From Mytilus californianus (taxonomy: Eukaryota), in assembly GCF_021869535.1 (NCBI RefSeq), contig NW_026262615.1:16368001-16432000 (forward strand): a stretch of DNA of 64,000 nucleotides, written 5' to 3'. The translations under genes were made by a program, and so were the position numbers. The notes under the pieces are model-generated. The model did no database searches and was not told the origin of the DNA. It was given only the letters and a program-made list of their open reading frames with translations. Shown in pieces: positions 1 to 25,844 of this stretch (the first letter of the stretch is position 1; each line of letters begins with the position of its first letter).

Positions 1-1144
1 CTCACAAACAACTTAACAAACAGCTATATATCTGTATAATGTAAACAAAAATATAACACACAATAAAAAATTTTAAACTTAAAAAGGTTAGTTAAAGTAT
101 AAACTAATAGGTTTTTATTCATGACACAAGCTTACAGGTTTTGTATGCTTATAATGGGGTCTGGATGGAGTTTATAGAATAGAGAATAAAGATTCTAGAC
201 TACAGAAAAATGGGCCAAAAAGATTTAAAAAAATAGTGAAACAATAAAGAATAGAGAAAAATGGGGTGCAAAATATAAAGATTGGAGAGTACGGGGGAAA
301 CATGATAGAGAAGAGAAAAACCAACCAAATATAAAAGAATATGGAAATGAAGATCCCCCATCCAGACCCTCTATAACTGTAAAGTTTCAACAACAAAAAT
401 AATAAGACATGAAAGGTGCAATAAAAAATCCTGACCACGAGGATGGATAACACCATGACAAACATTGTCCTCAAATCATAAAACAGAACACACAAGACTG
501 AACTTGAATGTATTAACACCACTAACCACTAACATGACTGTGAGTGAACTAGAATGGAGTATACAGATAGAGGTAACCTTAATCAGGAATTAATATTACA
601 TTTGTACTACTATAAGTTATTTTATACATCTGTGAAATAAATTAATTACAATTATAAACATGCAAGCAAAATTAAAGATGTATTAATATTCATCTGGCAA
701 TGCTTAAAACAATTTATCTGTTTCTTAAGATACAAAATGTACATTGTTATGATTGTATATTTAAGATAAGTAAAATTTACACTACAATTTTTTACTTTCA
801 GGGCTTTTCAATGAATAAAAAAATTTGCAGAGGGAGATAATCATCTGAATACAATTGCAAAGCAACCAAATTTCACACACAAAATGGATACTGCCAATTT
901 CACTTTCCACAAACTAGCAAAGCATTTATTCTAAATAATGTTCTCCCAAAGAATTATCAACTTCTATAAATGTTTCATTAAATTATTTCTCTAGCTATAT
1001 TTAATATATATACGAGTAATACTATATTTCTGATTACACTAAGTAGTAATTTGTATGTTACCACTTCCTACAAAAAATATGTAGTGCATTTTACCTGTAC
1101 ATGGTCAGGTGTAATTTATTCAGTAATATTTACACCAAACTATA

Positions 1145-2083
1145 TTATGATTTGGAATCTGCAAGCCTTGTATTACTACCAAACATATTTCTCATTAAAA
1201 ATTCATAAGTTGCATTTATAATACCCCATGATATAAACGATCTGGTAAAATTTATGTGTACACCTCTAAACAATTTCTTAAGTTTTCTGTCTCTTTCAAT
1301 CCATACTTGTTTGGAAACTTTCCAAAAGCTGTCAAATTCACCACTAAGTTTACATTGCATCTTAACCTTCACTACATTGACGGGATAAAATATAGTACTC
1401 AAAGATGCACCTAAAACAGCACCACAGAAAAAGTCCTGAGATATTCTATCAGCTTGGGAATCAACTCTTGGCAAATTTTCCATGGCGTAATCTCTAAAGA
1501 GGAAAAACGGTACATTGCTTGGTCCATTTCTTAGTAAAACTGCTGATAATCCACGAAAATATTCCCTGAATCCATATTTACGTACCTCTTTAAAAGCATG
1601 AGCGGTATTGTCAAAACGATCTTTATACTGGCGATCTTGCATTAAAACTTGAATTCTTTCAAAAGGACACAACACTGCTTCTAAGGTTCCTGCAGTTAAT
1701 GCTGAAAAAATACGAACTCCATGGAGCGGTAAAGATGGATGTTCAACTGTCAAATAATGTTGAATTTTATAATAGGATCCAAACATAAGCGAAAGTGAGG
1801 TAGTTTTCTGAAGCAAAGGGGACAACAATCCCCGATACAAATGACGGATGCCTTCTTTCTGTAACTGCCCTACAGCCTTGCAAACTCTCACACCATGCAG
1901 CTGCTGTCGAAACATCACTTTATTAATGGGGAATGTAAACCCAATATTTACGAAGGCTGCTCCCCAGCCACTAATGAATTCTTCATAATCCTTTGTATTT
2001 CTGCTATGGATATAGGTTGACATTTCCTTCTGAGAAATAGTCCCAGGTTTTTGTACTATATTTTCCATATTGTGGTTCTTCAT
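1145..2083 (-). CDS. SLC25A51: Mitochondrial carrier SLC25A51/MCART1-like (mitochondrial NAD+ transporter), 312 aa, single coding exon
   Basis: Intact 312-aa ORF with three carrier-type Px[D/E/N]xx[K/R] repeats (FPINKVMFRQQLHG, CPFERIQVLMQ, YPVNVVKVKMQ). GWGAAFVNIGFTFPINKVMFRQQ and LFRGVHINFTRSFISWGIINATYE are diagnostic of the SLC25A51/52 subfamily. A splice acceptor (ctttcctttatccattacAG, AG at 2192-2191) lies 107 nt upstream of the ATG, so there is an untranslated upstream exon. Confidence 0.92.
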   Translation of the reverse strand: MKNHNMENIVQKPGTISQKEMSTYIHSRNTKDYEEFISGWGAAFVNIGFTFPINKVMFRQQLHGVRVCKAVGQLQKEGIRHLYRGLLSPLLQKTTSLSLMFGSYYKIQHYLTVEHPSLPLHGVRIFSALTAGTLEAVLCPFERIQVLMQDRQYKDRFDNTAHAFKEVRKYGFREYFRGLSAVLLRNGPSNVPFFLFRDYAMENLPRVDSQADRISQDFFCGAVLGASLSTIFYPVNVVKVKMQCKLSGEFDSFWKVSKQVWIERDRKLKKLFRGVHINFTRSFISWGIINATYEFLMRNMFGSNTRLADSKS

Positions 2084-2339
2084 GATATGAAATGTTATTT
2101 AATAATTGGATTATAGACACAATACATTTGACAGTTCGACATATTCTTGTCAATTATCAACATCCTGCAGAATCTGGCTTCTTCTCAAATCTGTAATGGA
2201 TAAAGGAAAGATCAAAATTGTTGCTTAACCGTATACATGATATAAAAGACTTAAAACAGGTATAAGCAATCTATATGTAAATAAATGTAAAACAACATTT
2301 GGAAAATCTCCAAAATTTGAGGACACCAATGGTCCATGC

Positions 2340-3300
2340 AATAAAATTGAGAATGGAAATGGGGAATGTGTCAAAGAGACAACAACCCGACCATAGAACA
2401 GACAACAGCAGAAGGTCACCAACAGGTCTTCAATGCAGCGAGAAATTCCCGCACCCGGAGGCGTCCTTCAGCTGGCCCCTAAACAAATATATATACTAGT
2501 TCAGTGATAATGAACGCCATACTAAACTCCAAATTGTACACAAGAAACTAAAATTAAAAATAATACAAGACTGACAAAGGCTAGAGGCTCCTGACTTGGG
2601 ACAGGCGCAAAAATGCGGCGGGGTTAAACATGTTTATGAGATCTCAACCCTCCCCCTATACCTCTAGCCAATGTAGAAAAGTAAACGCATAACAATACGC
2701 ACATTAAAATTCAGTTCAAGAGAAGTCCGAGTCTGATGTCAGAAGATGTAACCAAAGAAAATAAACAAAATGACAATAATACATAAATAACAACAGACTA
2801 CTAGCAGTTAACTGACATGCCAGCTCCAGACTTCAATTAAACTGATTGAAAGATTATGTCTTCATCATATGAATATCAGGCACAATCCTTCCCGTTAGGG
2901 GTTTAGTGTCATACCATCATAACATATATGAGAAGAACATAACCCGTGTCATGCCAACAACTGGTTTTTAAATAAATGTGTTAAGTGCCGATGCAAAGAC
3001 CCTATAAGTGAATCAATATTAACGCCAAAATATGCAATCTTTAATGACCTGACAACAGTATCGTAACTATATCCCTTCTTAATAAGTCTATTTAAAGGTT
3101 TTGTTAGCTTCAGAGGTGAATACTGACATTTTTGTGCTTTATAAAGAATATTTCCAAAAAATTGGATGTGAAATACCTGAACGTATAAGAAGTCTGCATG
3201 TTGAGCTATATTTAGGAATGATGTCCTTATACCGATGATAAAATTTAGTAAATGTTTTGACTAGTTTGTGATATCGAAAACCCTGGTGTAATAATTTTTC
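2340..3300 (+). repeat. Young high-copy dispersed repeat (Nin-domain-like core ctcctgacttgggacagg...ggggttaaacatg), in the SLC25A51 intron
   Basis: 2340-2668 is almost identical to 58911-59240. The same core recurs at ~24850-25200 (-), ~30020-30450 (+), ~42480-42830 (-) and ~49740-50010 (-). Confidence 0.75.
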
Positions 3301-4308
3301 AGTAAGTCTTTACCAAGTCTTTAATTAGGTGTTACTAAATTTTGAAACAAATAATTTGAAAACTTGTAATTAATATTAATACAAAACATAATTTGAATCC
3401 CAATAACCAAATAATGACCATTTTTACATGCTACCCCAGAGACATATATATACATTTAGTTTATATGTCTCTGGCTACACATATATAAAAGAATGCAAGA
3501 CAACATATCATATTACAGAAGAATAAGATACTTACAAATGCATGGGGAGTGACAAGTCCCAGCCCTATCTGTGTGTAAAACATAGCTCTGTGTGTAATAC
3601 ACACACTGAGTGTGGTTGTAATCATGATAATTGTCTTTAATAATTGCAATATTATCTATATAAAATTGGCCTGTGGGAAATGTTTATGTATATTACACTT
3701 TAATATATATATATATATCATGTATATTTTCAATATTAACAAGATAAAAACAAAATGATCTATTTAAAAATAATTGTGTAAAAATGTAAGAAACAAAATA
3801 TTTAAATGTATTAATATTTAAATAAAATCTTGGAAATCAAGGTTAAAAAATATCAATAAAAGACTGCAAAATGTCATCTAGAAAATAACACATCTAAACT
3901 CTGAAAGATTTTGTCAAAACGTTATCAAGTTATTGCACAGACAACACTGAGTATCACTTTTCACTACTTAAAAACATCTACAACTCAACAACGATAAAAG
4001 CTAAAATTGTGAGAATACAACTTGACCTTCATTTAGTCATAGGAAACAACATATTTAAATTTGAAAGATTTCATCAAAGCTTTTTTAAGTTATTGCATGG
4101 ACACTGTTTGGCAGCTGCCAGCCCGCCGTACATCATCAAATTAATAACTGATGTGTTCCATTGGAAATACGGTTAAAAATGGGGTCACTGCTCGTTTTTG
4201 CCTGCTATAATATAAAATAACAAAAATTTTCTGTAGATTCCATTACAATTTGAACTATTTCTGAGTTACCTCCACTTTAAATGCAAAGTTTAAAAAAAAT
4301 CTGAATCA

Positions 4309-15390: not shown

Positions 15391-15519
15391 GAGGGACTGA
15401 CCGTGAATTTTCGGGTTAGATATACATATGAAAAAGGGGGGATCAGCCGACGAAAGTTTCGATCTTGATAACATTGAATAAGGGAAAAATTAAAAGATAG
15501 TCTGTCTATTCAGGACATC

Positions 15520-15830
15520 AAAGTGCAAAAATTTCTACAGATACATTGGCGAAAAAGTTACATATCAAGGACAACAAAGTAAGCTGCCGTGAAAAATTTC
15601 TCTGACAGATACATTGACAAAAAAGCTACATATTTAAAACAACAAAGTGCAGAAATTTCTGCAGATACATTGGCGAAAAAGATACATATTCAAAACAACA
15701 AAGTGCAAAAATTTCTACAGATACATTGGCGAAAAAGAAAGATATTCATGTCAACAAAATGCAAAATTTTTTTACAGATACATTGGCGAAAAAGATACAT
15801 TTTCAGGACAACAAAGCAAACGTTTCTGCA
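15520..15830. repeat. ~56-bp minisatellite, 5 copies
   Basis: Unit caaagtgcaaaaatttctacagatacattggcgaaaaag...; the anchor cagatacattg recurs at a ~56-bp period. Confidence 0.85.
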
Positions 15831-16302
15831 CTTAATTACGGTCGATCGCCATCACAGGTCTAGGACCTACCTGATAAATTTTGTTAGTTTGTTCTCCGCC
15901 TAAACATACTTGAAATATATGCCACTGTATCTGCATCTGTAACTGTATCGAGATAAATTCTACCAATGTAGGCACACCTCCAATGGAGTTGAATATATAT
16001 AATATCCTTCACCACACAATATAATAATACGCAATGAATGTCTAATCCAATTATGAATACATAGTAATATATCAATAAAAATGACTTCTGTACCGCCACC
16101 ATTATGTACAATTAATATATGATTTGACAATAAAAAGATAAAATTTATATTTAATTTTAATCTGTATGCACCCATATAATAACCAAATTTATTATTGGTT
16201 GATAACCGTCTATTTGATTCGATTACAACTGATGATACCTGTGGAGATTCCCACCCTGATCATCAGCTTAATGTCATATATAGTTTACATTATATTTACT
16301 CC

Positions 16303-19300
16303 TCATGAAAGGTTGTTTTTCTTTTCACATTTTTGTTGTTTGGTTAGCAGTTCATACCGCTTCATATGCAGATTGTTAATAAGCTGTCTACACACACTCT
16401 AGTTGTCCAGTAATATTTTGAACAATTTCATTGTTACGTTTATCCACAGTATAGTAGAAAGGATTAACTATTAGCTGAACTAAGTCTACTTCCTCTACAA
16501 AGCAAGATTTTGGTAAAAGTTCACTCCCCATATCAATTATTATCTTCATCAGTCTTTTCCTGTCGGTTTCAAGTGACTCACATGTTAGTAAAAAATGTGA
16601 CAAGATTTCAGGACTCTTATTACAAAGTTTACATGTTGGACTGACTTTGTTTTTATTGAATGATGCTCGATTCGATTGAAATATATATGTTCCTGTAGCA
16701 ATTTTGGTTCTTGTATGAATCCTTACAATGTCTCTATTGTTGGCTGTTTTTGTAGTGATCAATGGGTGTATTTTCCCAATAGAATATTGACAATTTATAT
16801 ACCGAAGAGTTGAGTTCATCTTTGAGTCATCAAGAATTTTATTGGTCCAGTAGCTTTGCACTTTATTGTTTATAAAGGATTTCCATTTGTTTTTTGTTAG
16901 TGGATTGTCCAGAAAGTTTTCTATATTTTCTATATTATATAACAAACAGAGTTTTTTAATATCAATGAACCAACTGTTACTATTGAAAGATTTTAATTTA
17001 AGCTGCCTTTCCGCTATTCTCCACACATTTGAAGTTTTTTTCTGATCTCGTGATGGTCCAAAATAATGTCAAAATTTTGATATTTAACTCAGCTTCAATA
17101 GGTATCATGCCAGAGAGTATATAAATGGCTGGGTCTGCTGTATTTGTAGATAATGATAGTAGCTGTTTTAATAATTTCTTGTGGTATAGATTAAGAGTTG
17201 TTAGAGATTTTCCTTTTGGGATCAAAATTTCTAGTCCATAAGTAAGAATAGGTAGTACAAAAGTTTTAACTAGTGAGATAATTGTTTCTGGGTCCAAACC
17301 GTTGGTTCCATGAAGACCTGATCCCATTAAACTATATAAAGTGCGTCTTGCTTTTTTGATGTTTTCTTCAACTGTTAACTGGACTGAGTTTTTTTCTGAT
17401 TTATGTATTCCAATGTGTGTTGCTGTTTTAACTACTGGCATTGGCTTATCATCCATATTCCAAAATCCTTCTCCAGTTTCTATTGTTTTTGAGGTTGTTC
17501 TTACTGGCAGTATTACACTTTTAGTAGGTTGTAATAAGTATCCTTCTCTTCGACTGAAGTCAACTGCAATATCAACCATGGACTGTATCTCCAGTGGATT
17601 TGTTGCTATAATAGCGACATCATCAGCGCAGGTAGGTACACAACAGTTTATGTTACCAATTTTTCCGCCGAGTCCTGTTTCACACAAGAGGTTCAATAAA
17701 GGGTTGACATATACTTTATACAAGTCAGCAGATATAGCTCCACCTTGACGTACTCCTTGTTCTACTAAGAAAGGTTCCGAAAGGTGACCATTTCATTTAA
17801 TACATGTAGCAGCATTTTGGTAAAGATTTTGTATCATTAGTAGAGATTGATCAGATATTCCAATTTGGAAGAGTCTTCTAATGAGGTTTGCATGTACTAC
17901 TACATCAAAGGTTGACTTCCCATCAAGCAGTGCTATGTAAGTTGGTCTTTTTAGGTCTTTATTTTCTCTCTCAAACTCCTCTATGATGAGTTCACACATA
18001 CGTGGGGTGGTATCCTCTGTGAATCCACTTTGTAACGGGTTTTGAGATTCGATAATTTTTATATTTTCTCTTAGTTTCAAGATCTTTTCTATTATTTTCG
18101 ATAAGGTTGGAGTGACAGTAATTCCACGGTAGTTAGTAGCATCTTTAATATTGCCTTTGTTTTTAAATATTGGAAATAATGTGCCAATTTTGAGTAGGTC
18201 TGGAACATAACAGTATTTAAATGACATATTTATTAGTTCACGTATATAAGCTTTCAGATCTTCACCACCATATATAATATTTTCTGCTGTGATTCCATAA
18301 ATGTCTGCTGCTTTGTTTTTGTTCAAACTTGATATTGCTTTTTCTACTTCTTCATCAGTCACTTGCATATGAATATATCTATTTTGACAAATATCAGATA
18401 TAACTTTAACTTCTTTTTCAACATTTTCCAAATGTTTATGATCGAACTTTGTATTGACAGACTTTTTAGCTAGTTCTCCAAAATGTATATGCCAGCCGTT
18501 AATAATTTGGTTGTCACTGTTATAGATTTGATTATCAACATTGAGCTAATCTATATGTTTTGACATTTTTCCTCTTTGATTTCTAATCATTCTAAAAAAC
18601 GTTTTGGTATCTGTGACTTTAGAATCAATTAGTTTTTGCCTCTCATTTATTCTTCTAATTGCTATTTCTAAGCGACATTGCTTCCTCAGTTCGTAAGTTG
18701 TTAGCTTCTTTTGTTTCAGGTAGTAGTTGTGTGGATCATTAATGCTTCCGTTACTTTTCAAATTATAGAACGCTATTTTCTTGTTACTGATAGCTTTACG
18801 AATTTCCTCATTCATCACTTGTAATTTTGGCTTCTTTTTTCCTTTTTTTGATTTAGGAGCAATATCTTTTGTAGCTTTAATTATGATGTTATTTAAAGTG
18901 TTGAATCCGCTGTCAAGGTCTTCACGATTTTGTATTTTACATTTTGTTGAGCTAATTTCTGTAGAGATGAGGCGTGCATATTTTCCTGTATCAATTTTGT
19001 CCCATTTTATTCTTGTGTTAAATGTTTTTGCAGATGTTTGAGAGTTTTTAATAATATTGAGCTTTTTCTGAAGATGTAAAACAGACAATAACAGAGGATA
19101 GTGGTCCGAAACATTTGAAGTTACATTTAGTTTCTGTATATCTATTATGTTCTCTGAATATTTATTTTGATAAAGAATAAAGTCAATGGCAGTGGCATCT
19201 TTTCCATTTGAATGTATAAAGGTAAGTCCAGTTTCTTTTGAAGATAGCTCATGGTCTTGCATAAAGTCATTGATATATTTCTTTCTATGAGAGGAAGCAC

Positions 19301-19784
19301 CATTAATTATGTCTTCATTAAAGTCTCCTCCTATAATTATCTGATGAGTATTGGAGTATGTACATACAATCTCATTCAGTTGGTCTATACATTCTAGTAG
19401 CTCTTGTGTACTGTTAGTGGGTCCTTTGCATGGTAGATATAAGAAAACAATGATGATGTTAGGATCTCCTTCTATTTCAATGCATTGAATTCTACTATTT
19501 CCTGCTTTCAAAGTCGAAATTAAGGGGTCTAGTTCTTTTCGCCACAATATTGCCACCCCACCGTATCCTCTCGGCATTTGTATTGGAGGCAGAGGGTCAT
19601 CAGTGTCAACCGGCCTTCCTATTCCTATATATTTAGAGTCAATTTCATTCAACATGTTGAGTTGACAATCAAACAACCAATGTTCCTGAAGTAAATAAAT
19701 ATCTACATCTTCCTTCATCTCTCTGAAGAATGGACCACAAGACTTAGTTAAAATATTTTTACAGTTAAAACTCAAAACTTTCAT
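16303..19784 (-). pseudogene. ORF2: apurinic-like (EEP) endonuclease plus reverse transcriptase, disrupted
   Basis: EEP motifs MKVLSFNCKN, LLQEHW, GYGGVAILW, GGDFNED, SDHYP (18546-19784). RT motifs NYRGITV, LQSGF, ALLDGKSTFDVV, PTCADDVAI (16998-18431). C-terminal CKLC...HFLLTC (16388-17026). In-frame stops at 18546 (TAG) and 17793 (TGA), and frameshifts near 17.0 and 16.4 kb. Confidence 0.92.
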
Positions 19785-19861
19785 ATTCTTCTGCTCACAA
19801 TCATTAAAATCTAAAACGTTATTTGTACAGTTACTATTTACATATGTACGTGGATTGTCAT

Positions 19862-21853
19862 CTAGTGCGGTGTCTGGTTGAGGCTTGGATGGTATAAAAA
19901 ATGATCTGTATAACTTGTAGGTTGGTAGTACAATGGTTGTCCTATTTTTCTATACTGATTATCTATTGTTTGCTGATCGATATGCCTCGAGTGGTATGTA
20001 TTCTGATCATTAGTTCTTAAAAGTTGTGTTGTATTGTTTTGAATAGATATGTGGTTTTGGACCTTTTCTTTGTTTGTCCAATTTGGAACAACTTCTATAA
20101 AGTTATCCTTGCAGATGTTTCGGGTCTCTAGTTTTGTTTGATATGAGTATTGACTAGATATTTCTCTTTTATCATGATTCTGATACTTCCTATCTTCATT
20201 TTCTGATCGGTACCAGTATTGATTGGGTTCACTGAACTGCGCTCCATACATACTGTACTGATTAGTTGCTGGTGGTTCACCATAGTTTTGGTTATAGCTG
20301 CTATCTCTATAGTACAGTTGTTGGTTTGAAGGATACATTTGCTTGTAATCATATGATGTTTGATTTTGTCTATTGAGAGTATCATTGTTGGTATTTTTAT
20401 TTTCATTTTGAAGTTTATTTATTTCATCATCAACTTTACTAAGTACATATTTTGTCACTTTTTCTCGTATACCAATCACAAGGTCATCAGTTGCAGTGCT
20501 AGTCGTATTTTGGTGTTCAGGAGGATGTTGATTTTGCCTCTTCTGAAAAGACTCTATTTTGGTGTACAGAGTTTTAATTGTATTTTCCAGTTCTAAATTT
20601 CGAAATTCTGCTTTATGTAATCTATCTAAGATGTTTGTTTTTTCCTTCATATTTTCATTAATCATGGCTTCTTTCATTTTTAATTGTTCTTCTCTTTTTT
20701 CAACTTTTGTTCTAATTGTTTTAATTCCTTCATATGAATTTTGTGATTTTCATCTTAACTTGTTTTTATCAGCTGTAACAGTATATGTAGAACCATCAGT
20801 GATCAGATGTGAAGTATTCGGAGATTCAGGTTGTGTCTTTTGGCGTATTTCATCACTTTGTGCAGTACCGACAGTAGCTCTAAATTCAGGTTGAATATAT
20901 TTTGTAGTTGTTTCAAGAGAAATGTTAACTGGTCCTGATTCATTAATGTAAGTTGTCTCTATTTCTACAGATTTTGGTATTGTTTCATGTGTTTGTTGTT
21001 GGGTTTTGTCACTGAGGTCTCTCTGTTCAGCTAACCCTATGCACGAGTTTCATTTTTGAGTATCATTATCTAGACAATTGTCATGAAATGGCATGTCACA
21101 TATTAAGCATCTGTTTTCAACACTTTGTTCAAAAATTATTGCAGGCATTACATTGAATTTCTTCTTGTAAAATCATGTCAGCTACTGACAATTCTGGATT
21201 ATTAATAGCACAGTCATTATGTAATATTGCTAACTATACAAAGTTGTTTCTTGTATCAAACTCTTCATTTATGCAAATTTTACACACATAGATATGTACA
21301 CTTTGTTCTATTTCTTCAATTTCGTTTTCAGCTAGTTTGTCACATTTATAATGGACCCAGTTTTAAGTTTTATTGCCAGATTTTGATTTAACATTTCTAT
21401 ATTAATTTTTGCTCCATTTATCTGTGTGTTACTCATAATTTTGTAAATTTCTTGAGCATGTTGATGTATGAATTGATGAGCATCTTTTCCATTTATCAGT
21501 AGTGTACATTTTGTTACATATTAAGCATTGATTGTGAAGCTCAAGTTTGTCGAGTCAGTGATTTGATAGGTATATTGTACCTTTTTTGCCGGTTTTGTCC
21601 TTGGCAGTTGTTTTATTACATGTATCAAAGTATGTTTCACATGCATATATGAATAGTTCAAAGGATACTGTATCCAGTTGAGCAGTGATACCCCCGCCTG
21701 TATATGAATATTCAATCTCAGATCTCTGTGTAGTCTCAAATTTTTTCTTTAAAGATTTTTCGATATTTAACACATATCTGTTCTCATAAGTTTTTCCAAT
21801 ATAAAGCTTGCTGTCACTTTTTGAATGTTTAATGGTTTTTTAACTAAAGCCAT
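19862..21853 (-). pseudogene. ORF1: gag-like protein with PHD-finger remnants, coiled coil and Q/N/Y-rich C-terminus, disrupted
   Basis: Likely ATG at 21853 (caagATGgct). Fragments YTGGGITAQLD, YVTKCTLLINGKD, WVHYKCDKL...YVCKIC (PHD second half) and RCLICDMPFHDNC. Coiled-coil segment in ORF 19862-20677. Confidence 0.7.
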
Positions 21854-21951
21854 CTTGTATAATTATAAAATTTTCTAGTATTGAAATTGTCTATAAGACC
21901 AGCGATACCTGTGAAGATTCCCACCCTGATCGCTAGTACCTATATGTCAAT

Positions 21952-22669
21952 TTACCAACAGTCAAATATTGCCTGTTTTGTGATCTTACGTAGCCACACT
22001 CTTGCTAGGTTCGTGTCTGGATGTATTCCGTCACGGTACAAGTTAAAGTTATACTGATCAGATGCCTTACGTTAATTGTCTGATTTTTTTTGTTTATTTT
22101 ATGATAGATATCTGAGGCGAAATTTGGTGTAATTGATCTAAGTGTCCTGTTGAGGTTGCCAATATGCTCATTGATTTCTGTGTATTGTTTTAGAAGTTTG
22201 ATGTCTTGTTCTATAAATTGCTTTAGCTCTGATGTTGTTTATATTTATTCCAAGCCTATGGTGGGAGTTGTAAGAAGGTGAGTTTACAACCTGGATAGTT
22301 TCTAAAAAGTTCAATAATATGTTGATAGTTATCAGTAAGTGTTTTGATTGTGTCTTGTTCCTCAGACCTTAATGATATGTATTTTCCGTCATAGGATGTA
22401 ATGTCGCACGTCCCTAACCATATATAGAGAGATATATTGTCAAGCTGACCAATCTTGGAGTCTAGATTGCTATGTAACCATTCAAGTCCTTGTGTTGAGG
22501 TACGTCCAGACCTGAACCACCACTTGATTGTGTTTTCTGTGGGGATAGTACAATGTTTGCTGACCCAGTATCCCTTACTGTCAGTAAGAACAACCGGAGG
22601 TAATAGGCGTTGACCAGGAGGTGGTACAATAGGTTCACGCAAAAACTTCAACAATTTATATTCTGTCAT
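21952..22669 (-). pseudogene. SGNH/GDSL-type esterase ORF (one frameshift near 22255)
   Basis: Block I VVLTDSKG, block III YIWLGTCDIT and, after the frameshift, block V YRDGIHP (22018-22032), ending FDCW* (TAA at 21952-21954). Confidence 0.8.
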
Positions 22670-23559
22670 GAGTTGTATTATGCAATCAAAAGTTATTATA
22701 TAGGTTATATTCAAAAGCGTGCAAGAGTATACACATGTACGGGTAAGGCAAAGCTATCTACTGGTTATATAAGCAGGCTGGATATATGTAGAAGGCAGAC
22801 AGTACAGGTTATATACTCAAAGCTCTATTGACTGGTAAAAGTCGGTTATGATTTAAAAAAAATGTCATTCACTTTTGTTGGAAGACAATATATGATATCT
22901 GCAGACTATATATTTACAGTCATGAATTGATAAAAATGTTTTATTCGGTAAAACAATAACACAAGATTTTCACCTCCTGAATAACGTAGAAAGTTCACTG
23001 TAATTTATAAAAATTGGATACTATTAAAACTCTAATTCAGGGAATGATTATTGATGGGTGCATACAGACTATCTAAAAAAAATTAAGAAATGACCGCCAT
23101 GACATGCGGATTATGGATGGGCTCGCAACTGACGGATTGGTTTTAGTGTTTATATATCAAATAAGACGCATAAAAAGTTTATAAAAGTATTCCGCCAGTG
23201 TTAGGTGTAATAAAGGGATGTATTTGCAATGTTCCTGTCACAATATATCTTCTAAAATATCAAATTCAATGAAAATTTTCCTCTCCCAAATTCAATGAAA
23301 ATTTTCTTCTCCCAAATTCAAACCACCACCATTTATTCGAGCATGCGCACATCAAAAAAATGAACGTTAATCAAGCAACAATCTCAGTATCATTCAATCA
23401 AATGCCCAGTTTCAGGATAAATATGTTACAAACTGTCTTGACATATAGATAAGTGTAATCGAAGATCCATTATCTGATGAGTTGAAACATGGTATATACG
23501 TATATAGGCCCTAAAAAATCAGAGACAAGTTCATGTAAGTTCTACTACTAATCAATCAG

Positions 23560-24460
23560 AGCTTTTAACTACTTCCTTAACTACTATCAAAAAACTTATC
23601 ATTAACTTTTGTAATAAAACATATGAAAATAGTGGAATTAAGTATTTATTTAGTGTAAAAAATTCTTTGGATGTTTTAGATAAATTACGCGCTTTTGATG
23701 GTCCTTCTGATTCGGTTGCCGTCAGTTTTGACTTTCCACTCTTTATACTACATTACCACACAATCTTATCAAACAAAAGAGTTGCTTTTTAATCAAATGG
23801 ACGTTTGAAAAATCTGATTGCAAATTGCTTTGCTGCAACTCATATAAAGCCTTTTTCCTGAAAAAAAGGTAAATATGCTAGATATGTACCTACTTGAGGT
23901 AATGAGATGATTAAAGCTGCAAATTTTCTCCTTGACAACATTTATTTACGTTTCGGCAGTAAAGTTTATTGACAGGTTGTAGTTATTCCTATGGAAACCA
24001 ATTGCGCCCCTTTAATAGCTGACTAGTTCCTATACTAACATGAATCACGGTGTATGGCCAAACTGAGTAACGACCCCGGCGTCTAAATTCCATTTAATTG
24101 ATAAATTCAACAACAGTTACCACTATCTTGATGATATTTTTTCGTTAAATAATCAAGAATTCTCTAAATATACTGCCAAAATTTACCCAAAGGAACTTAC
24201 TTTATATATTAATACCTTTACTAAATCATACTAGATACAACGATTTGGTTTGCAAGTTTGGATGTACCTGTAGAAAACATATTTCAAACGGAATAGCACA
24301 TTCTAATGTTTACCGAGCCCGAAAATTTAGTTGATCCGGGTAAACTTATAAATCATTTAAATAAACTTATTCTGAAAGGTTACCAATTCAAAACTGCAAT
24401 TAGATCCTTGAATATGGTTTTTATTGGTATTCATATTGATTATCTTTTCAGTAAATTTAA
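23560..24460 (+). mobile_element. Penelope-like element (Naiad/Chlamys-type) reverse transcriptase relic
   Basis: Degenerate translation NFLLDNIYLRFGSKVY*QVVVIPMETNCAPLIAD*FLY...FNNSYHYLDDIFSLNN...IYPKELTL matches the PLE RT motifs PMGTNCAP..ADLFL / RY.DD. Confidence 0.8.
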
Positions 24461-25844
24461 ACCATACTAAATATTATTGTTATACACACATGCACATTCA
24501 CGATAACCATATTTTGGCATTGCGCACGTCATGTTTTTCTTTAACTGTTAATGACGTCTTTGCACTAATTCCATTGGATGTTTGATGTGTACTGATTGAT
24601 ATTTTTGTCTTAGATATATGATTTTTTATAGTTATTATTGGCTTTGAACTAGCTGTCAGTAACTGCGAGTACTCCCAGATCTGTACTTGGGTCTCCTTTT
24701 TTGTTTTTATGGATGTATAAATACCCTGCCCCGTCCTGTCTTTGTTTTTGTTAGATGTTTTTCTGCTTTATATCGATCTGAGGAGTTTAAAGCCCTTTTT
24801 CACTGATTGTTATAGTTTGTTCTTATGTTTTACTATTACACCACTTTCCCCGGTTAGGAGGAGGGTTGGCGCCTTCAAACATGTTTAACCCGACACATTT
24901 TATATGTGCCTGTCCCAAATCAGGAGCCTGTAGTTCAGTGGTTGTCGTTGGTTCATGTCTGTAATATTTCATTTTTGTTTTTCGTAAATGGCTTTTTTTA
25001 TAAATAAGTTCATTTAGTTTTCTTAATTGAATTATTTTATATTTTTCATGTCGGGGCCTTTATAACCGACTATACGGTAGAGGTTTTTCCTCCTTGGTGA
25101 AGGCTGTACGGTTGCCTATACTTGCTTACATTGCTTCATTTGAACTTTGGTGGATAGCTGTCTCATTGTTTATCATACCACATCTCCTTATTTTCATATA
25201 AATAAGTTAAAACAGGGAGAAATACAATTTGTTTCGACGAATAAAACGTCTGCTACAATAACATGAACTAAAAAATGAGTACGTCCGAAACGCTTTTTTG
25301 GATTTAATCATCATCATTTTGCTTACAACAAACTAACATTGGAAAGCCAAGGGTGTATAAAGACTTGAAATCCTGAGGAGATATATGAATAACCAAAATC
25401 TACCTAAGGTCAATTGAAACCTTAGTTTCATTTAGTAATTCCAAATTTATCAACAGAAAATGCATCAGAAAAGTATGTTAAAAATCATTAGTAGCATAAA
25501 TTCCAATGGTTTATAAAATACTACCAGGTACGTCCGGAAAACTATTAACTGATCTTCAACACCATCTCAATAAAATATCGTATGTATCTTGGATGCTATC
25601 GAATAAGGATATTGTTTTAACAACTTTTAAACCTCCAAAACACCAACGGACGTCAAGCTATAATTACAGGTCATCATACGGCCTTCAACAACAAGCAAAT
25701 CATTTACCGTATAATAAGCTATAAACAGCCCTGGATAAAAAAGAATTGGAACAGTTTACTAAAGAAAAACCATAGGCCTTTTTTAAGCTAGTGATATAAA
25801 ACTAAAACAAAAAAAAACAAAAAAAAAACAATTATGGCAGATAG

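Follow-up and report, generated by a model that had tools for sequence, protein, structure and literature searches.

The window analysed here (the whole 64,000-nucleotide (nt) stretch of Mytilus californianus contig NW_026262615.1, positions 16,368,001 to 16,432,000) carries a decayed non-long terminal repeat (non-LTR) retrotransposon with two copies of a 38-nt hairpin, one next to an SGNH esterase-like open reading frame (ORF) and the other in the 3′ untranslated region (UTR). The structure of this hairpin is under selection. In comparisons across element families its sequence follows the esterase, above all a variable basic segment of that protein, and not the reverse transcriptase (RT) or ORF1. 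We consider it rather probable that the hairpin is a family-specific RNA site, with the element's own SGNH esterase-like protein as its candidate ligand in a Rev/Tat-like pairing. The features concerned are:

21899..21936, minus strand: hairpin B, between the esterase ORF and ORF1
16229..16266, minus strand: hairpin A, within the 3′ UTR, past the RT stop codon
21952..22669, minus strand: free-standing SGNH esterase-like ORF, frameshifted here, of which an intact relative has a predicted SGNH fold
22041..22112, minus strand: Lys/Arg-rich variable segment ahead of the DGIH block, candidate RNA-reading beta-hairpin

Both 38-nt hairpins were located where the sequence-only reading had placed them: B begins 15 nt past the TAA of the esterase (21954-21952), its end being 45 nt ahead of the ORF1 ATG (21853), and A lies 36 nt past the RT TGA (16305-16303). 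The window holds exactly these two matches and none was obtained in 100 shuffles. A and B fold alike (folding z of about −2.9 for each): 8 bp form the outer stem, followed by a 4x4 internal loop (CAGG/AGGU) and by GUGG/CCAC as the apical stem. Between their outer stems there are three double changes, plus a change from U-A to U-G, and pairing is kept throughout. Exact core matches number 21 in the genome of origin (17 belong to type A, four to type B) and 0 in the control. The one core difference between A and B had been read as a further sign of selection on the RNA. Three of the four B copies have a C at this position, so that the change is peculiar to this one B copy and gives no evidence of selection. 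The broader proposal of structure selection near ORF ends is supported by the family-wide data below, this single difference being uninformative. No Rfam model (including ribozymes, selenocysteine insertion sequences, iron-responsive elements and the signal recognition particle (SRP)) matched segment 15500-24500 of the window at E values up to 5.

The hairpin belongs to a family found at esterase loci. The esterase search gave 501 candidates, among which 150 matches were listed; 60 of these were chosen for spread and taken as 10-kb loci. De novo repeat finding revealed short element-specific repeats at these loci, and the hairpin patterns were composed after this step and after inspection of the loci. 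Related hairpins are present at 56 of the 60 loci, with 148 pattern matches in sense and none in antisense orientation, while the remaining four show repeated or variant hairpins by eye. Their common build is a variable outer stem, a family-specific internal loop, a short UGG/CCR stem and a loop of 5-6 nt. In a genome survey by sequence patterns, a single hairpin type accounts for 294 exact matches, compared to 0 for the control. The first copy is positioned no more than ~110 nt from the esterase stop codon in 48 of 53 loci. Other copies are found ahead of the esterase, ahead of or inside ORF1 (inside at L060), ahead of ORF2 and rarely past ORF2 (arrays in the 3′ UTR at L084/L085). They often precede the next ATG by 40-120 nt. 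The non-coding arrays differ between related elements. Some hairpin types contain 5′ splice-site-like sequences (GUAAGU/GUCAGU); as the motif is confined to these types, a universal 5′ splice site was rejected.

The unit formed by esterase and hairpin heads several kinds of retroelements: RTEX-like long interspersed elements (LINEs), CR1/L2-like elements coding for PHD, endonuclease (EN) and RT, a LINE with RNase H, and Ty3/gypsy elements. In the latter (L093-L096, L100, L104, L091) the esterase precedes gag, and that of L096 lies between LTR-like repeats. A covariance model built from LINE copies alone, which has 73 matches in 470 kb, detects the gypsy copies of L093, L094 and L100 (E values 0.002-0.009). 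It misses the L103, L104, L111 and L209-211 types as well as copy B of the window, and the kinship of the L103, L104 and L111 types is thus weaker. A blind scan of metagenomes with the hairpin pattern yielded 64 loci. One of them has a full esterase 50 nt upstream that is 61% identical to the one of L086, its nearest esterase relative, and its hairpin has the L086 core type. The other 63 loci gave no esterase, ORF1 or RT signal, and scans for related loci in metagenomes and viral contigs found nothing. Note that at L082 the unit of esterase and ORF1 is tandemly duplicated ahead of the endonuclease ORF, with nine hairpins.

Selection on the structure is visible at several levels. Over 161 pairs within elements, identity is 0.96 for the 16-nt core and 0.41 for the outer flanks, while cores of different families are 0.54 identical; hairpins far apart in one element are nearly the same, and those of different families differ. 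When flanks were exchanged, folding was better with a hairpin's own flanks in 55 of 68 copies compared to the flanks of another family, and in 44 of 59 compared to those of another copy in the same element. For 53 aligned copies the number of paired cells and the covariation score exceed those of 500/500 shuffles and of every slid register, while two pair-type measures were not above shuffles. The outer stem past 5 bp displays weak covariation in a fixed register (44 of 219 double changes pair); pairing registers differ between hairpin types. A U-G pair occupies one stem position in 22 of 59 copies, which points to RNA together with the strict sense orientation.

These data bear on two other functions that can be envisaged for the motif. 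It could act as DNA, being either a family-specific target of an element protein with a VANC-like anti-silencing role or a transcription-factor site. The variable non-coding arrays resemble VANC targets (PMC5735166), but the location of 148/148 matches on the sense strand, the U-G pairs, the selected flank pairing and the lack of a constant factor consensus across families render this very unlikely. Alternatively, the hairpin could be a cleavage or processing site (a new ribozyme or a nuclease target) at which the polycistronic RNA is separated into its units, in line with copies lying between ORFs and sometimes in arrays. This is highly improbable: no Rfam match was obtained in 15500-24500, no invariant catalytic core extends past 3-4 stem bases, and cutting at the copies within ORF1 (L060) and within the 3′ UTR upstream of the tail would remove needed sequence.

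The protein that the hairpin tracks was assessed by Mantel tests on 21 RTEX-like families (20 for ORF1; L104, L070 and three degenerate copies were omitted). Hairpin distance correlates with esterase distance (r 0.57, p 0.0005), also when RT is removed (still 0.57), and not with distances of RT (r 0.06, p 0.18) or ORF1 (r 0.006). ORF1 and RT correlate with each other (r 0.85), and the esterase tree disagrees with the RT tree. Copies found kilobases away from the esterase, like hairpin A, match the type of their own element. In a family without esterase that has the same ORF1 (six copies with a shared 5′ end) no match to the covariance model was found, in favour of an esterase ligand; the model is insensitive to variants, which makes the absence of hairpins in esterase-less families a soft argument.

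The sequence-only reading had likened the hairpin to the 3′ stem-loops of L2/CR1 LINEs recognized by the RT, and had proposed a cis-element by which full-length and esterase-only RNAs would be retrotransposed, packaged or 3′-processed. The L2/CR1-type role is not supported. Hairpin A is not terminal, as the element continues past it for ~280 nt to the (GATACA)n tail, where a different terminal stem-loop is found. No hairpin lies past RT in 25 of the 27 loci whose ORF2 end was located, an absence that removes the L2/CR1-type reading when combined with the separate stem-loop of the RT subclade; the RT correlation quoted above and the presence of hairpins in Ty3/gypsy elements also count against it. 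The terminal stem-loop (15958-15981) occurs in 7 of these 27 loci, all within the RT subclade of this element. It is likely the true 3′ recognition element and, judged from this distribution, a better candidate for recognition by RT than hairpin A. The more general proposal that ORF1p or ORF2p bind the hairpin for packaging or RT recognition, so that full-length and esterase-only RNAs would both be copied, is largely refuted and we give it very little credence. Copy A and the L084/L085 arrays do lie in 3′ UTRs, and ORF1 proteins bind RNA (PMC3905857). However, the hairpin is uncorrelated with the RT and ORF1 trees, is found in LTR elements and in elements devoid of such an ORF1, and leaves the 3′ end to be marked by another stem-loop, no copy following RT in most loci. 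The packaging idea survives in a changed form, in which the binder is probably the esterase and not RT.

Named homologues of the esterase come from Mytilus, plus one from Dreissena. The protein family counts 951 clusters at 50% identity (E values up to 1e-10), and look-alikes in the Atlas are labelled Mollusca, or Annelida on few records. The fold predicted for an intact relative is that of SGNH proteins (predicted local distance difference test score (pLDDT) 91; best match with Z 16.8 and root-mean-square deviation (rmsd) 2.9 over 180 aligned residues). Sequence searches against the PDB returned nothing significant, and the ZfL2-1 esterase (see below) is absent from the listed fold matches, which is uninformative. 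Lipase_GDSL was detected in 10 of 74 family members. The catalytic Ser is found in all 74 and the Asp and His in at least 90%. SGNH hydrolases usually have an Asn in block III. A nearly invariant Cys, with no Asn, is found in the GTCD motif (position 88 of esterase alignment A2), which we take, from the motif, to be the site of this oxyanion hole residue.

All esterases examined have a variable Lys/Arg-rich segment ahead of the DGIH block. When sliding windows of 20 residues were compared to hairpin type across 23 families, with correction for the rest of the protein, this segment gave a partial r of 0.47-0.50 versus at most 0.27 for other non-overlapping windows. It ranked first in 4/4 subsets, equally variable windows reaching 0.01-0.20. 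AlphaFold models the segment of one esterase as two strands (residues 190-194 and 200-204, pLDDT ~87).

In the mechanism that we propose, the basic segment would form the predicted beta-hairpin, which would recognize the internal loop beneath the GUGG/CCAC stem. Esterase fresh from translation would bind in cis to the hairpin adjoining its own stop codon, and further copies (A in the present element) would provide additional binding sites. The purpose may be, though we are doubtful here, to bring the enzyme into the ribonucleoprotein particle (RNP) of the element, improving the fate of an RNA with several ORFs; this RNA might gain in membrane targeting, in export, in stability or in the translation of its downstream ORFs. 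Esterase and hairpin would constitute a portable module, and elements with a hairpin only would borrow the protein in trans. More generally, we tentatively envisage, at somewhat less than even chances, a self-addressing module, in which an active SGNH hydrolase would bear, as a graft, a fast-evolving beta-hairpin specific for the RNA loop of its family; each element would thereby direct the enzyme to its own transcripts. Such a module would have spread among no fewer than three LINE types and Ty3/gypsy, its address would have been captured by esterase-less L1/Tx1-like elements for use in trans, and its orthogonal pairs would amount to a natural recognition code.

Several observations weigh against binding by the esterase. 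Most hairpin copies are physically linked to the 3′ end of the esterase gene, and such linkage could mimic co-evolution; the Mantel tests also leave some shared ancestry in the r values. Since it is the basic segment that lies closest to the first hairpin within the gene, recombination linkage could yield part of both signals. Scores of just −0.11 to 0.11 are obtained for windows even closer to the stop codon, which are, however, more conserved. The segment of another esterase model has a pLDDT of 61-72 and no clear strands. L228, in which a type-Y-like hairpin goes with an esterase without the DLYR motif, departs from a strict residue code. Ser, Asp and His of the catalytic site are conserved, unlike in the RNA-binding SGNH protein Oskar. 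The esterase class of ZfL2-1 is described without defined RNA-binding domains (PMC3905857). Hairpin arrays at L218-L222, L230 and L231 have no esterase in the stretch examined.

Finally, an esterase-less L1/Tx1-like family (seven loci: L213-L216, L223, L224 and L227) has a type-Y hairpin, one per locus, in a long 3′ UTR (e.g., L224:8590-8625). In loop and outer stem this hairpin is similar to those found in the gypsy elements L093-L100. As conservation extends over the whole of this 3′ UTR, the hairpin may have been carried along passively or may serve as a signal for host factors; its use by an esterase supplied in trans would also fit. Type-Y hairpins also occur at L217, L225 and L226, as two copies 83 nt apart in a repeat with ORF1-like remnants and one more ORF. 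A link to piggyBac was rejected, as the hairpins of L212 are part of a 460-bp insertion missing from three other close copies.

A host reader would account for such cases. Host machinery (export, protection from nonsense-mediated decay, localisation, U1 or reinitiation factors) would read the hairpin, which would be required once an extra ORF precedes the element, and the esterase would be tracked by linkage only. The short UGG/CCR stem common to most families, the frequent spacing of 40-120 nt to the next ATG, the splice-site-like motifs of some types and the L1/Tx1-like hairpin are in its favour. We nevertheless judge it unlikely: in one genome the cores are 0.96 identical within and 0.54 identical between families, where a single reader would favour one sequence, distal copies match the type of their own family, and one esterase lineage (L229) has a wholly different hairpin. 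At this locus, on the minus strand, the diverged esterase is followed by ~8 copies of an AGCAAG...CTTGC type (see also L195/L231 and L142).

Other candidate functions were discarded. Stop-codon readthrough conflicts with in-frame stops past the esterase stop codon in the present element and in most families; L059 alone stays open (oriented 995-3907, where esterase and ORF1 are in frame with one TAG between them and no other stop before the ORF1 ATG). The termination upstream ribosome-binding site (TURBS) of caliciviruses is an exposed UGGGA upstream of the stop codon of the first ORF, but the hairpin copies are downstream of the stop, their UGG is paired and UGGGA is not kept in many families. 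Likenesses to SRP helix 8, to NF-kB or CSL DNA sites and to the hammerhead are confined to the hairpin family of the window or mispositioned.

The element that carries hairpins A and B comprises these further features:

15925..23352, minus strand: decayed three-ORF non-LTR retrotransposon of 7.4 kb, delimited by the extent common to other copies and by its domains
19862..21853, minus strand: ORF1, broken, with an N-terminal domain, a Cys/His PHD-like region and a coiled coil; relatives match PHD Pfam
16303..19784, minus strand: ORF2, broken, with APE endonuclease, RT and a C-terminal zinc knuckle
15958..15981, minus strand: terminal stem-loop adjoining the tail, unlike hairpins A and B, found in relatives of the RT subclade
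15925..15949, minus strand: (GATACA)n-type 3′ tail

From its architecture (SGNH esterase, PHD-type ORF1, EN-RT-zinc knuckle) we provisionally take the element to be RTEX-like; in intact relatives the esterase is a separate ORF with its own stop codon and not a domain of ORF1 as in RTEX. A degenerate tandem repeat with units of ~45-55 nt (15507-15830) adjoins the 3′ end of the element. Thirteen non-coding 3′ fragments with hairpin A sit inside another repeat and share flanks where checked. Those of L112-L124 derive from a sister subfamily, begin near hairpin A inside a tandem-repeat-rich repeat and are the source of many RNA reads. A short interspersed element (SINE)-like element appears unlikely, no SINE head having been sought, as the fragments begin near 16276, lack ORFs and lie inside another repeat. 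Four raw-read RNA runs gave 3-101 reads, mostly from the diverged 3′ fragment and too few to define ends, strand or splicing; at this low coverage no esterase-only sub-RNA was seen.

The leading idea on transposon esterases is contact with membranes or lipids and, to our knowledge, includes no defined RNA target. The hairpin and the candidate reading segment bring esterase function within reach of tests that require a protein of 245 aa and an RNA of 40 nt. If the proposed binding is true, it explains how an accessory gene swapped among unrelated retroelements still works in cis, and orthogonal protein-RNA tags of natural origin would become available in large numbers.

No account of the hairpin emerged from our literature search, which did not extend to Repbase reports or to the majority of subscription journals; the three-ORF layout may be described there. 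The word "esterase" is absent from the main text of a bivalve LINE survey (PMC10294476). That transposons encode esterases, and that different element classes share them, is already known (PMC3905857 and PMC5408684). The former (Schneider et al. 2013) deals with ZfL2-1 and the esterase-type ORF1p of CR1/L2/RTEX elements. The mussel protein shares with it the SGNH fold, conserved catalytic residues and a position upstream of the RT gene, but it is a free-standing ORF of ~245 aa ahead of a separate ORF1, has no preceding coiled coil and is linked to a cognate RNA hairpin, none being described in the available portion of PMC3905857. The latter (Rodriguez et al. 2017) reports that a GDSL/SGNH ORF3 is shared by LTR and Penelope-like elements of bdelloid rotifers. 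One esterase ORF is likewise found here across unrelated retroelement classes; it is, however, in another host and comes first in the element, and the rotifer case is presented without a cis RNA element in the pages accessible to us (PMC5408684).

Stringent LINEs and their SINEs have 3′ stem-loops (PMC3747384) that are likewise small hairpins of LINE 3′ UTRs with compensatory changes, whereas the present hairpin is not terminal, lies mostly outside the 3′ UTR and tracks the esterase instead of RT. VANC proteins of Arabidopsis VANDAL transposons (PMC5735166) provide a parallel, being accessory proteins whose repeated targets lie in non-coding parts and are specific to each family; those targets are DNA motifs while the hairpins are strand-specific paired structures. 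The OSK domain of Oskar, an SGNH fold that binds RNA and lacks the catalytic residues (PMC5785220), matches the esterase structure with Z 14.0 and rmsd 2.8 over 166 aligned residues. It ranks 25th among the SGNH matches, with no special kinship shown.

The closest analogy is with Rev-RRE, Tat-TAR, lambda N-boxB and phage coat-operator pairs, in which an element-encoded basic peptide has a cognate hairpin with a non-canonical internal loop. As in the Rev, Tat and N pairs, an Arg/Lys-rich motif encoded by the element varies with the hairpin, here by correlation and prediction; unlike in them, the basic segment of the mussel elements is grafted on an apparently active hydrolase, and its binding to the hairpin is putative.

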